Translations under genes and position numbers: made by a program
In this document: one piece after another, positions 6,351 through 11,840 of the stretch
How positions within the stretch are numbered: the first letter of the stretch is position 1
Layout of the letters: every line of letters begins with the position of its first letter
DNA from: an uncultured Methylomirabilota bacterium
GTDB taxonomy: Bacteria > Methylomirabilota > Methylomirabilia > Methylomirabilales > 2-02-FULL-66-22
DNA length: 64,000 nucleotides
Direction of reading: 5' to 3'
NCBI GenBank assembly: GCA_963845565.1
Contig: CAWJSJ010000002.1
Span: forward strand, 1,984,001-2,048,000
Notes under the pieces: generated by a model
Database searches by the model: none
What the model saw: the letters and a program-made list of their open reading frames with translations, nothing else
What the model was told of the DNA's origin: nothing

Positions 6351-7050
6351 CTACTCCGAGCGGTGGAGTTGGTCCGTGACGCCGCGGCGGGCGCCCAGGC
6401 GGTGGGGGATGACGTAGAGGAGGGCCAGGACGACGCCGGCGATGACGAGGTAGCCGACGAGCCATCCGAGGTTCGCATCGCCCACCACCAAGGCGTCGCC
6501 GGCGATGACGAGCGCTGCCGTGCCAGGGATCATGAAGACCGCCGTGACGACCAGGTACGTCAGGAATCCGATGCGGGTCAGGCCGTAGGCGTAGTTCTGC
6601 AGGTTGAAAGGGAAGATGGGTACGAGGCGCGTGAACGCCAAGATGTACCAGCCGTGCTCGGCCACCGCCTCGTCGATCCGCGCCAAACGCGGGTGTCCGG
6701 CGATCCATCGTTCTACCATCCGGCGCCCCCCGTGCCGCGTGATCAAGAACGCCAGTGCCGCGCTGATGGTGGCGGCGATACACGTGTGCACCGTGCCCCA
6801 GAGGGGCCCAAAAGCGATCCCGGCCAGGATGGTGAGCGGGAGGGCGGGGACGAAGAGTAGTTCCATGGCGATGTACGCGGTCACGAAGGCGACCGGCGCC
6901 CAGGGGCCGAGGCCGTCCACCCAGCGCTGGAGGCGGGCGAGGTTCTCCAGCCGGAGGTACTCGTAGACCCCGAGAGCCCAGACGAGGACGATGCCGGCGA
7001 GGATCGCAAGGACGCCAGATGAGAGGGCCGCCAGCGACCGGGACGGGTCT
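6351..7050 (-). CDS. TVP38/TMEM64 (DedA/SNARE-associated) membrane protein; start uncertain, probable 5' indel
   Basis: TRLVPIFPFNLQNYAYG motif; the hydrophobic N-terminal helix continues upstream of GTG 6920 without an in-frame canonical start. Confidence 0.8.
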
Positions 7051-7101
7051 CCACAGGCGGGAGGGCCGACCCTCGCGTGGACGAAACGGTTTTCTGCGGG
7101 C

Positions 7102-8640
7102 CTACCGAGTCCAGGTCAGCCACTTCTGGAACGCCTTCTTGAGGAATGGCGTCAGCCGGGTCCGATTGTACTGGTCTCCGAGCTTCCGGATGGCCTCGGC
7201 CTGGGTTGGATACGAGTGGATCGTGGAGGCGATCTTCCCCAGACCCAGCCCCTGACCGATGGCCAGGGTCAGCTCCGGAAGCATCTCGCCCGCGTGCCGC
7301 GCGACGACCGTCGCCCCCAGGATCCTGTCCGTCCCTGCCCGGACGAGGACCTTGACGAATCCTTCCGTCTCGCCGTCCAGCACGGCCCGGTCGACGTCGC
7401 CCAGCTCCTGCACGAAGGTCCGCACAGGAAGCCCCTTGGCCTGTGCCTCTCGCTCGTACATTCCGACATGCGCGACCTCGGGATCGGTGTACGTGCACCA
7501 CGGAACGGTGAGGGCGCTGGCCTTGGCGCGCCCGAAGAAGAGGGCGTTCTGGATCACGATCCGCGCCTGGAAGTCCGCGGCGTGGGTGAACTTGTACGGG
7601 GAGCAGATGTCCCCGGCGGCGTAGATGCGCGGGTTGGTGGTCTGGAGCCGGTCGTTGACCTTCACGCCGGTCTTCTCGACGGCGACGCCGACCGTGTCCA
7701 GGTCGAGGCCCTCGACGTTCGGCCGGCGCCCCACGCCGACCAGGATCTCGTCCACCGAGATGTCGTAATGCTGCCCATGGGAATCGACCGTCAGGCGTTT
7801 GCCGTCCACCGTCTTGGTGACCTTGAGATCGCCGCCACAGCATAAGAGTGTGACGCCGTCCCGGACCAGCGCCCGCAAGACGATCTCCGCGGCGTCGCGA
7901 TCCTCGTTGGGCAGGATGCCGTGCTGGGCCTCAATAAGATACACCCGGCTTCCAAATCGCGCAAACGCCTGTGCCAACTCGCAGCCGATGGGCCCGGCGC
8001 CGATCACGGCCAGGCGGCCCGGCAATTCGGTCAGATTGAAGATCGTCTCGTTGGTCAGATAGCCCGCGTCGGTTAACCCGGGAATCGGCGGCACGGCGGC
8101 CCGGGCCCCGGTGGCGATGACCGCCTTCTTGAATCGCAGGGTCTTCCCAGCGACCTCGACTGTATCCGGGCCCGAGAAGCGCCCTTTGCTCAGGAAGACA
8201 TCCACGCCCAATTCACGAAAGCGCCGGGCCGAGTCGTTCCGGCTGATGCCGGCTCGCAGCCGGCGCATCCGCTCCATGACGGCCGGGAAACCCACCCGGA
8301 TCCCCGCGGGGACGTCCACGCCGTATGCGCCGGCATCCCGGACATCCGTCCAGGCGCGGGCGGCACGGAGAAGAGCCTTGGAGGGGACGCAGCCGACGTT
8401 CAGGCAATCCCCGCCCATGAGGTGTCGCTCGACCAGGGCGACCTTTGCCCCCAGACCGGCGGCGCCGGCGGCTGTGACGAGGCCTGCGGTCCCCGCGCCG
8501 ATGACCACGAGATTGTAACGTGGGGCAGGTTCCGGGTTCACCCAGTCGTCCGGGTGGACGTTCCGGACCAGGACCCGGTTGTGCTCATCCCAGGGTTCCA
8601 CGACGACGGAGTGCTCGGCACCGTCCCCGCTCTGATTCAT
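7102..8640 (-). CDS. FAD/NAD(P)H-dependent pyridine nucleotide-disulfide oxidoreductase (MerA/LpdA-like, lacks MerA C-terminal CC)
   Basis: GAGTAG, GGDCLNVGCVPSK redox disulfide, GAGPIGCE, IYAAGD, HSYPTQAE. Confidence 0.9.
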   Translation of the reverse strand: MNQSGDGAEHSVVVEPWDEHNRVLVRNVHPDDWVNPEPAPRYNLVVIGAGTAGLVTAAGAAGLGAKVALVERHLMGGDCLNVGCVPSKALLRAARAWTDVRDAGAYGVDVPAGIRVGFPAVMERMRRLRAGISRNDSARRFRELGVDVFLSKGRFSGPDTVEVAGKTLRFKKAVIATGARAAVPPIPGLTDAGYLTNETIFNLTELPGRLAVIGAGPIGCELAQAFARFGSRVYLIEAQHGILPNEDRDAAEIVLRALVRDGVTLLCCGGDLKVTKTVDGKRLTVDSHGQHYDISVDEILVGVGRRPNVEGLDLDTVGVAVEKTGVKVNDRLQTTNPRIYAAGDICSPYKFTHAADFQARIVIQNALFFGRAKASALTVPWCTYTDPEVAHVGMYEREAQAKGLPVRTFVQELGDVDRAVLDGETEGFVKVLVRAGTDRILGATVVARHAGEMLPELTLAIGQGLGLGKIASTIHSYPTQAEAIRKLGDQYNRTRLTPFLKKAFQKWLTWTR

Positions 8641-8658
8641 GGAACGTCCTTTTTTCGG

Positions 8659-10677: not shown

Positions 10678-11010
10678 TTACATGCCCGCCTTCTTAGCGT
10701 GCTCCAGCATCTGGACGCCGTGCACCAGGCTGGCACCCCCGCGGATCGCTGCCGCCACATGCACCGCCTCGGTCATCTGGTCCAGGTCGGCGCCCTTCTC
10801 GAGACACGTCTTCGAGTAGGCATCGATGCAATACGGGCACTGCACGGCGTGCGCCACCGCCAGGGCGATCAACGACTTCTCCCGCTCGCTGAGAGCCCCC
10901 TCCTGAAATACGGCGCCGTACCAGTCGAAGAATTTGGTCGCCAACTCCTTGCTGCCTTCGGCGATCGTCCCGAACTTGGCCAGATGATCCGAGTCATAGT
11001 AGTGGGGCAT
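10678..11010 (-). CDS. AhpD/CMD-family peroxidase-like protein of ArsS loci
   Basis: MPHYYDSDHLAKFG..., LSEREKSLIALAVAHAVQCPYCID, EAVHVAAAIRGGASLVHGVQM; stop abuts arsS start. Confidence 0.85.
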   Translation of the reverse strand: MPHYYDSDHLAKFGTIAEGSKELATKFFDWYGAVFQEGALSEREKSLIALAVAHAVQCPYCIDAYSKTCLEKGADLDQMTEAVHVAAAIRGGASLVHGVQMLEHAKKAGM

Positions 11011-11045
11011 GCGCGGTTCCCTCCCGGCGGGTGCTGATCGCCCTG

Positions 11046-11840
11046 TCAAAGTGGTGCTTTCGCCACGGATAGCCCGGCTCCAGGATGGTCCCCGGCGCTG
11101 TGATGGTTTCCAGCCCGGCCAGCGCGTCGCGGAGGATGGTCCGCTGCTGTCGCGACGTTGAAGGCTTCCCCCAGCGGATGCCCGAACGGATACCGCAGGA
11201 ACACCGACCGGGGGGGCCGCACCTTCTGGGTGACCTCCTTCAGGATGCTGATGCCGACGGTCGGGATGCCCTCCGCCTCGATCGCCCGCTGGACCAGACC
11301 CACGGTCTGGTTGCACAGCCCTCAGGCGGGTGTCAGGATTACGGCCTCCGCCCGATCCTCCTTCAGGCGCCTGGCAACTTCCGGGGCCGTTCTCTCGGTC
11401 AGCGTCTTGAGGTGCGGTCCATGGATGTGACCCATGAAGCCGTACGCGAACGGCGCGATCCCGCCGATTCGCTTTTCCGCGAGCAGTTCTCGGATCCGAT
11501 CCAGCGGCAAGACGACGTTGATGTCTCGGTCTGCCGCGGAATGATCGTAGTACTTGTGGGTGATGGTCAGGTCCTCTTTCCGTGCCTCCGACGGAATCGC
11601 GCGAAAACTCGGGTCGCCGTCCGGGTCCTCCATGTCGAACGGCTCCTGGGACGTGAGATGCACGCCGGCCGTCGTCACGAGGGCGATCACCGACTCGGCC
11701 ACGGGCTTGCGCACGGGAGTCCAGGGGATCTCGCGGCCCTCGACGAACTGGTGACGCTTCGCCCAGCGTGACGCCAGCCACGGCAAATGCTTGAACGCTT
11801 GCACCACGATGGTGTTGGGCAGGCCGTGTAGGAGCCCCAT
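11046..11840 (-). CDS. PrdB/GrdB-like reductase selenoprotein B (Sec at UGA 11322-11324, UGLC motif); apparent +1 indel near 11150
   Basis: ALVTTAGVH, GDPSFRAIP, DINVVLPLDR, AVILTPA-UGA-GLCNQTVGLVQRAIEAEGIPTV in one frame; YPFGHPLG. Confidence 0.85.
11287..11321 (-). promoter_or_regulatory. Candidate bacterial SECIS element
   Basis: UGA-GGGCUGUGCAA-CCAGACC-GUG-GGUCUGG-UC-CAGC: perfect 7-bp stem, G-starting loop 18 nt after UGA, lower GCUG/CAGC stem. Confidence 0.75.

Follow-up and report, generated by a model that had tools for sequence, protein, structure and literature searches.

Introduction

The closest described relatives of the six-gene operon analysed here are the ArsS/ArsM arsenosugar pathway of Synechocystis PCC 6803, together with the NCBIfam cassette of arsenosugar-associated families, and the selenoprotein PrdB of D-proline reductase. 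The operon is headed by a PrdB-like selenoprotein gene and lies in a window of 64,000 nucleotides (G000:C2:1984001-2048000, the whole stretch of DNA that was analysed) from G000, a Methylomirabilota-like metagenome-assembled genome (MAG) of 5.36 Mb, 66% GC and six contigs that is 98.7% complete. Cyanobacterial ArsS converts trivalent dimethylarsenite, DMAs(III), and S-adenosylmethionine (SAM) to pentavalent 5'-deoxy-5'-dimethylarsinoyl-adenosine, DDMAA (PMC13598754), and SsArsS works with SsArsM (PMC8552651). After its release, DMAs(III) oxidises to pentavalent DMAs(V) (PMC6138428). Anaerobes commonly reduce DMAs(V) back to DMAs(III), a step that may be limiting for demethylation in paddy soil, and the available text of that study names no enzyme for it (PMC10579292). 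In D-proline reductase, the active enzyme is PrdA and PrdB together (PMC11229817). The Sargasso data contain 42 PrdB-like genes (PMC1088965), and a selenoproteome review lists PrdB and TIGR04167, the ArsS family, separately (PMC13188914). Further sources are bioRxiv 10.1101/2022.07.06.499078, PMC12159101, PMC10298544 and PMC3836016. Within the available portions of these sources, literature searches found no link of a PrdB-like protein to ArsS or to the cassette, although selenoproteome supplements could hold one.

Like the Synechocystis pathway and the NCBIfam cassette, G000 has ArsS and an AhpD-like protein (TIGR04169) above the family cut-offs, and TIGR04282, a split TIGR04283, DUF3047 and ArsM elsewhere in the genome. 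G000 differs from them in that arsM is not linked to arsS and lies in an acr3 operon, the arsS operon starts with a gene for a PrdB-like selenoprotein, relatives have a second radical SAM family in place of ArsS, and the host is a Methylomirabilota-like MAG. We tentatively propose that the operon supplies the redox and adenosylation steps of an arsenosugar-type pathway and that its PrdB-like protein, a predicted selenol reductase, would keep methylated arsenic trivalent for ArsS. Most of the operon belongs to a cassette that is known but little understood; the selenoprotein is its one credible new member, and relatives add a second, unstudied radical SAM.

A predicted selenoprotein of the PrdB family

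The first gene carries an in-frame UGA that reads U173-G-L-C176 (UGLC). Homologues were collected from GTDB genomes, and all GTDB-locus counts below rest on the best 80 of 187 confirmed loci. TGA is found at the selenocysteine (Sec) position in 80/80 of these loci, always within a UxxC motif. A hairpin begins 12 nt 3' of the UGA; each of the six core pairs can form in 70-77 of the 77 distinct sequences compared, and its loop always starts with G. The pair that joins base 1 of a Thr/Ala/Ser codon to base 3 of a Gly codon is kept in 77/77 sequences through four combinations, with 66 Watson-Crick pairs against 34.8 expected by shuffling, a shuffle that ignores kinship. Since the 60 nt after the UGA fold no more stably than shuffled sequences (z -0.53), the selenocysteine insertion sequence (SECIS) is claimed from the covariation of this hairpin and not from overall folding energy. 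The genome also contains selA, tRNA-Sec, selD (with its own UGA) and, near tRNA-Sec, a selB with several frameshifts. Judged by the conserved UGA, the SECIS hairpin and this machinery, the gene encodes a predicted selenoprotein, as an initial annotation of this DNA had claimed.

The protein is homologous to PrdB (TIGR04483) and to protein B of glycine, sarcosine and betaine reductases (PF07355) over residues 40-260, and shares their UxxC motif and SECIS. Unlike these proteins, it begins with about 35 additional, amphipathic residues, it scores 160 bits (177.6 bits for the intact copy of the relative G009) against a PrdB cut-off of 300, and no Stickland genes were seen in the neighbourhoods examined. 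The model for betaine GrdH (NF040795) gives 65 bits against a cut-off of 775, and the protein has ~265 residues as compared to about 435. The pyruvoyl partner PrdA/GrdE (PF09338) has no match in the whole G000 genome. The same search was positive in one of five relatives tested, G014, where the match lies beside a separate GrdB-like gene and serves as a positive control, and gave no match in the other four (G009, G033, G039 and G045). Membership in the D-proline, glycine or betaine reductases was rejected on these scores and on the absence of PF09338 from the genome.

The nearest named homologue records come from Methylomirabilota MAGs, and R80, H95, Y97, Y98, H100, D106 and H138 are invariant across the homologues. 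An alignment-based model of the intact G009 protein reached a mean predicted local distance difference test score (pLDDT) of 91, as against 39.5 for a single-sequence model. In this model U173 is placed after a strand, at the N-terminus of a helix, as in generic thiol oxidoreductases. Residues 7-29 are modelled with low confidence as helices whose hydrophobic moment reaches 0.59, possibly a membrane contact. Foldseek found no match to the model in the PDB at E <= 0.001, and a family-profile sequence search of the PDB returned no credible relative. VIA-align returned generic Rossmann/LacI-like alpha/beta folds, the best with Z 9.4 and root-mean-square deviation 3.3 over 137 aligned residues.

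A one-base frameshift that the initial annotation had missed interrupts the assembled gene. The assembled frame departs from the family after residue 230, and the conserved C-terminus sits in the next frame. The 97%-identical G009 gene has one base fewer at about 11150 and is intact, and complete homologues are uninterrupted in 77/77 cases, the remaining 3/80 being incomplete or ending at contig edges. Near-identical contigs from 3/4 DNA runs and 3/4 RNA-library runs lack the extra base, and in the fourth DNA run matching ends at the break point. Thus, the extra base is very likely an assembly error; a private mutation of this strain is not the favoured reading. Programmed frameshifting was rejected because no homologue shares the break and because selB and the TIGR04283 gene are broken in the same assembly. 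These two frameshifted genes (selB at G000:C4 about 5500-7400; TIGR04283 at G000:C2:2061718-2062381) are a sign of frequent indel errors. The last DedA gene has small indels near 7018-7025 at its 5' end relative to G009 and to three RNA-library contigs, so that its start is uncertain.

The arsenosugar-type genes of the operon and the genome

The gene order given by the initial annotation (PrdB-like, AhpD-like, arsS, DedA, flavoprotein, DedA) is borne out by open reading frame calls and family scans. The tight packing it described holds for most junctions: the homologue-matching PrdB-like frame overlaps the start of the AhpD-like gene by 17 nt, arsS begins one base past the AhpD-like stop, and the first DedA gene and the flavoprotein gene are 18 nt apart. 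It does not hold between arsS and the first DedA gene, where the gap is 177 nt. RNA-library contigs from related strains span all six genes in 3/4 runs, with 4/5 gene junctions crossed among the pieces listed; these contigs carry neither strand nor single-transcript information and were not counted as proof of co-transcription.

ArsS scores 407.8 against a TIGR04167 cut-off of 300, and contains PF04055 and PF12345, a CxxxCxxC motif and a Cys-rich DUF3641 region. It has 14 Cys residues and a C-terminal GSS-C; the closest ArsS of another species (G010, L049:9969-11087) ends in GST-U, with Sec at the position of this last Cys.

The flavoprotein resembles mercuric reductase MerA in that its best PDB match is MerA 5X1Y, it has a CxxxxC motif, and in its HSYPTQAE sequence, conserved in cassette homologues, a Tyr replaces the E3 catalytic His as in MerA. 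It differs from MerA in its TIGR02053 score (389.7, cut-off 454.45), in having neither an NmerA domain nor a C-terminal Cys pair (its last Cys is residue 382 of 512), and in its acidic nucleotide site, which is Glu or Asp in most homologues. By the usual Rossmann-fold rule, an acidic residue at this site favours NADH. The flavoprotein therefore looks NADH-type rather than NADPH-type, contrary to the NADPH of the assay first suggested. A cyanobacterial MerA-like reductase, Slr1849, reduces Hg(II) and U(VI) (PMC4307280).

DedA genes, of which the operon has two, and PRK06370 flavoprotein genes often neighbour the cassette. The families TIGR04167, TIGR04169, TIGR04282 and TIGR04283 were defined as one cassette, in agreement with their NCBIfam names. 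In G000, TIGR04169 adjoins arsS, and TIGR04282 (above its cut-off), TIGR04283 in two pieces and DUF3047 lie together 66 kb from the operon. The window has no arsM match, as initially stated, and the genome-wide search then suggested found the gene along with the sel genes: an ArsM-ArsN2 fusion lies on contig C5 near acr3 (NF008823 300.8, cut-off 263). The best ArsM score to the arsenosugar-specific model NF038099 is 96.7, below the cut-off of 400. The fusion belongs to an ars island (L081, G000:C5:194000-212000) that also has acr3, a UXX-star glutaredoxin-like gene, a radical SAM/SPASM gene and an ArsP-type permease. A second ArsM-like methyltransferase with an in-frame UGA is located at L002:1363-2100 (G000:C2 about 869k) and scores below the cut-offs of the named selenoprotein models.

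Conservation and mosaic structure

Among 61 related genomes, whose kin are not independent, the PrdB-like protein was matched in 41, and its close clade is found in 23, G000 included. Cassette genes occur at 23/24 loci of the close clade versus 0/14 loci of more distant paralogues. A radical SAM gene lies within about 3 kb at 22/24 close-clade loci, both exceptions being contig ends: ArsS at 9, an uncharacterised 284-residue family at 12 (G010 has both), and an ArsM-like-fused relative of the latter at 2. ArsS is present in 9/61 genomes, and 10/10 arsS copies adjoin a PrdB-like gene. The converse does not hold, since 14/23 genomes with the close selenoprotein lack ArsS and mostly have another radical SAM instead. 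Strong TIGR04283 matches were found in 23 genomes, 21 of which are among the 23 with the close selenoprotein.

The genes most often follow the order symporter, radical SAM 2, phosphoesterase, PrdB-like, DedA, flavoprotein, TIGR04283. In G010 an AhpD-like gene and arsS are inserted into this order; G000 and G009 have the insert and not the three upstream genes, and with the queries used none of the three was found in G000. An AhpD-like gene stands beside the selenoprotein in only four assembled genomes examined (G000, G009, G010 and G085) and on the close-kin contig L211.

The 284-residue radical SAM (L061:10485-11336; L050:9651-11552) scores best against NF049973 (107.7, cut-off 380), and a protein atlas search described it only as 'radical SAM family'. 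In G045 and G059 a relative of this family carries a fused ArsM-like domain. Another relative, G039 (L043, L044), carries two near-complete arsM-arsS-PiT-selenoprotein-DedA-DUF3047-TIGR04283-flavoprotein-DUF3179 cassettes.

Beyond the close relatives, the neighbours at the 80 GTDB loci were TIGR04283-like (21), radical SAM 2 (19), phosphoesterase (18), DedA (17), flavoprotein (12), TIGR04282-like (8), ArsM-like (7), arsS (6) and AhpD-like (0). A cassette gene lies within 6 kb at 24/26 Methylomirabilota-type loci, many contigs in this set being short. In a tree of 74 of the proteins from these loci the cassette-linkage label needs 7 changes. Independent links occur in Acidobacteriota (L113 and L122), Nitrospirota (L156), Binatia-like loci and Desulfobacterota (G085, G148 and G179). 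From the ArsS side, the best 80 of 593 confirmed metagenome loci have an AhpD-like gene at 55, ArsM at 6, the flavoprotein at 4 and a PrdB-like gene at 1, from close kin. In a tree of 102 ArsS rows, built by a quick method that left out four duplicate loci and hits covering <250 residues, PrdB-linked arsS copies fall in at least three separate marked lineages. The proposed PrdB-like/arsS linkage is conserved among the relatives, recurs in these ArsS lineages and is rare for this ArsS subtype at large.

Co-occurrence was tallied by hand in 151 genomes of the Desulfobacterota type, the phylum of G061 (a Desulfatitalea MAG), with orthologue level set at E < 1e-90. ArsS is found in 12 and TIGR04283 in 12 of the 15 genomes with orthologues, one or both being present in 15/15 as compared to 58/136 of the others (Fisher p 8e-6, uncorrected for kinship). 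One orthologue adjoins TIGR04283 (G090). More distant PrdB-like genes adjoin arsS cassettes in G085, G148 and G179, and not in G072, G113, G157 and G209. Among 151 Acidobacteriota genomes, ArsS occurs in 17/40 with a distant PrdB-like gene versus 16/110 without.

Because the AhpD-like gene follows ArsS mostly without the selenoprotein, and distant homologues of the selenoprotein are mostly unlinked, the operon is, on these gene neighbourhoods, a mosaic of two modules rather than a single conserved chain of three proteins. An AhpD-like/arsS pair that is widespread sits inside a cassette of selenoprotein, DedA, flavoprotein and glycosyltransferase genes of Methylomirabilota. The single obligatory chain that had been proposed, from flavoprotein to AhpD-like CxxC protein to UxxC protein to DMAs(V), is highly improbable: the genes overlap or abut in G000, G009 and G010, and G085 has all three redox genes near arsS, but the AhpD-like gene is missing from all 80 selenoprotein loci and, where it accompanies arsS, the other two are nearly always lacking.

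Proposed role and alternative explanations

Since close relatives keep its gene beside arsenosugar-type genes, the selenoprotein likely helps to hold methylated arsenic in the reduced state that the pathway is predicted to require. In the pathway that we tentatively propose, ArsM from the separate ars operon would make DMAs(III), part of which would oxidise to DMAs(V). Sec173 may attack the As(V)=O species and Cys176 resolve the adduct with release of As(III), and the MerA-like flavoprotein would re-reduce the Se-S bond, probably from NADH. ArsS would then adenosylate DMAs(III), as cyanobacterial ArsS does. The AhpD-like protein may be ArsS's own travelling thiol partner, acquired with ArsS, and not an obligatory relay. 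TIGR04283 and TIGR04282 would assemble the product, a sugar or a lipid, and the DedA proteins would carry it through the membrane or shift it within. The parts of this proposal differ in weight. The pathway probably acts on arsenic, and the selenoprotein is just as probably a working part of it; that it reduces As(V) to As(III), and does not instead cleave C-As bonds or maintain proteins, has a probability of a little over half.

Several observations weigh against this reading. The flavoprotein stands beside the selenoprotein at only 12/80 GTDB loci, and a cassette gene is found within 6 kb at only 9/54 non-Methylomirabilota loci, many contigs again being short. The selenoprotein seems dispensable for most ArsS of this subtype, being present at 1/80 loci and at 0/42 of those with at least 2 kb upstream. 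ArsM, to which arsS had been thought usually linked, is rare there as well (6/80). None of the 15 Desulfobacterota orthologues adjoins arsS, and none of the 17 Acidobacteriota co-occurrences is on the same contig. No ars regulator was seen at the operon. If the frameshift were real, the PrdB-like copy would be damaged. True PrdB breaks C-N bonds and, to our knowledge, is not known to reduce oxides.

Two alternatives are unlikely to a similar degree. In one, the UxxC and CxxC proteins serve protein maintenance, reducing disulfides on, or stripping arsenic from, the Cys-rich ArsS and ArsM, with no turnover of small arsenicals. ArsM needs thioredoxin-type disulfide recycling (PMC6138428), and the 14 Cys of ArsS and the thiol-oxidoreductase-like placement of the modelled UxxC would fit, but the seven invariant residues of the selenoprotein suggest a defined binding site, and the flavoprotein is without the catalytic His of classical disulfide reductases. 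In the other, the cassette acts on a non-arsenic compound (Se, S, Sb or another metalloid), or the selenoprotein, as a passenger, was inherited along with it within a single phylum. The mostly unlinked distant homologues, the rarity of ArsM beside this ArsS subtype and the origin of most linked loci in one clade are consistent with it, and TIGR04169, TIGR04282 and TIGR04283 have arsenosugar names that were assigned by association. However, linkage to the cassette appears in several lineages in each of the two trees, in the f4 and f7 relatives ArsM-like genes are neighbours or fusion partners, and arsS came to lie next to a PrdB-like gene on two or more occasions, in one case upstream of it and in another downstream.

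Less probable still is PrdB-type bond cleavage, in which, as in betaine reductase, a selenolate attacks a carbon adjacent to an onium centre such as arsonium, and the cassette salvages or remodels imported organoarsenicals such as arsenobetaine or arsenoribosides. Bond cleavage is known chemistry of the PrdB family (PMC11229817), protein B complexes of the betaine and fluoroacetate types function with no pyruvoyl pro-protein (PMC10838667), and the common upstream block of the relatives (sodium:solute symporter, radical SAM and metallophosphoesterase, at 11-12 loci) looks like uptake and processing. Nevertheless, the betaine- and fluoroacetate-type enzymes still have a second subunit (GrdI/FarE), which is absent in G000, as are the three genes of that block, and the betaine GrdH score is far below its cut-off.

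Environmental genomes commonly encode PrdB-like selenoproteins without PrdA, and this gene context offers a concrete candidate substrate for them. The second radical SAM family, with a relative fused to an ArsM-like domain, is a candidate for a new C-As-forming enzyme. It is conceivable, if somewhat doubtful, that stand-alone PrdB-like selenoproteins in general are dedicated organoarsenic reductases (from As(V) to As(III) in DMAs(V) or arsenoribosides) or C-As-cleaving enzymes, and that the Methylomirabilota cassette is a Se-dependent arsenosugar/arsenolipid pathway in which the second radical SAM family can replace ArsS.

Features of the locus and minor observations

Table 1. Features in and next to the operon, in window positions
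Feature	Position	Strand	Basis or remark
Stand-alone PrdB-like selenoprotein gene, U173xxC176 (predicted)	10994..11840	-	TIGR04483 160 bits, below 300; PF07355; homologue-matching frame ends at 10994
In-frame UGA, predicted selenocysteine	11322..11324	-	TGA in 80/80 homologue loci (best 80 of 187)
SECIS-like hairpin, 6-7 bp stem, GUN loop, 12 nt past UGA	11295..11309	-	covariation
One extra base versus all homologues and near-identical contigs, likely assembly error	11150..11152	.	
AhpD/CMD-family CPYC protein, TIGR04169 (arsenosugar biosynthesis-associated peroxidase-like)	10678..11010	-	183.8 bits, cut-off 120
ArsS radical SAM, CxxxCxxC and DUF3641, Cys form	9565..10677	-	TIGR04167 407.8, cut-off 300
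TVP38/DedA (VTT domain) membrane protein 1	8659..9387	-	family scan
PRK06370 FAD oxidoreductase	7102..8640	-	NF004991 831, cut-off 620
TVP38/DedA membrane protein 2, start uncertain	6351..7122	-	VTT domain
MITE-like repeat, 220 bp, upstream of operon, outside the system	11919..12138	.	empty site in G009

An Rfam scan of 6000-12400 gave no match, and a promoter and terminator scan gave no minus-strand site. The gap between arsS and the first DedA gene (9388-9564) contains short degenerate repeats and varies in length and sequence between related strains. The repeat upstream of the operon, which resembles a miniature inverted-repeat transposable element (MITE), has CTAG-ended terminal inverted repeats and sits between the operon and a divergent LysM/M23 gene. 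Elsewhere in G000 this element is represented by five near-full copies and 12 partial matches.

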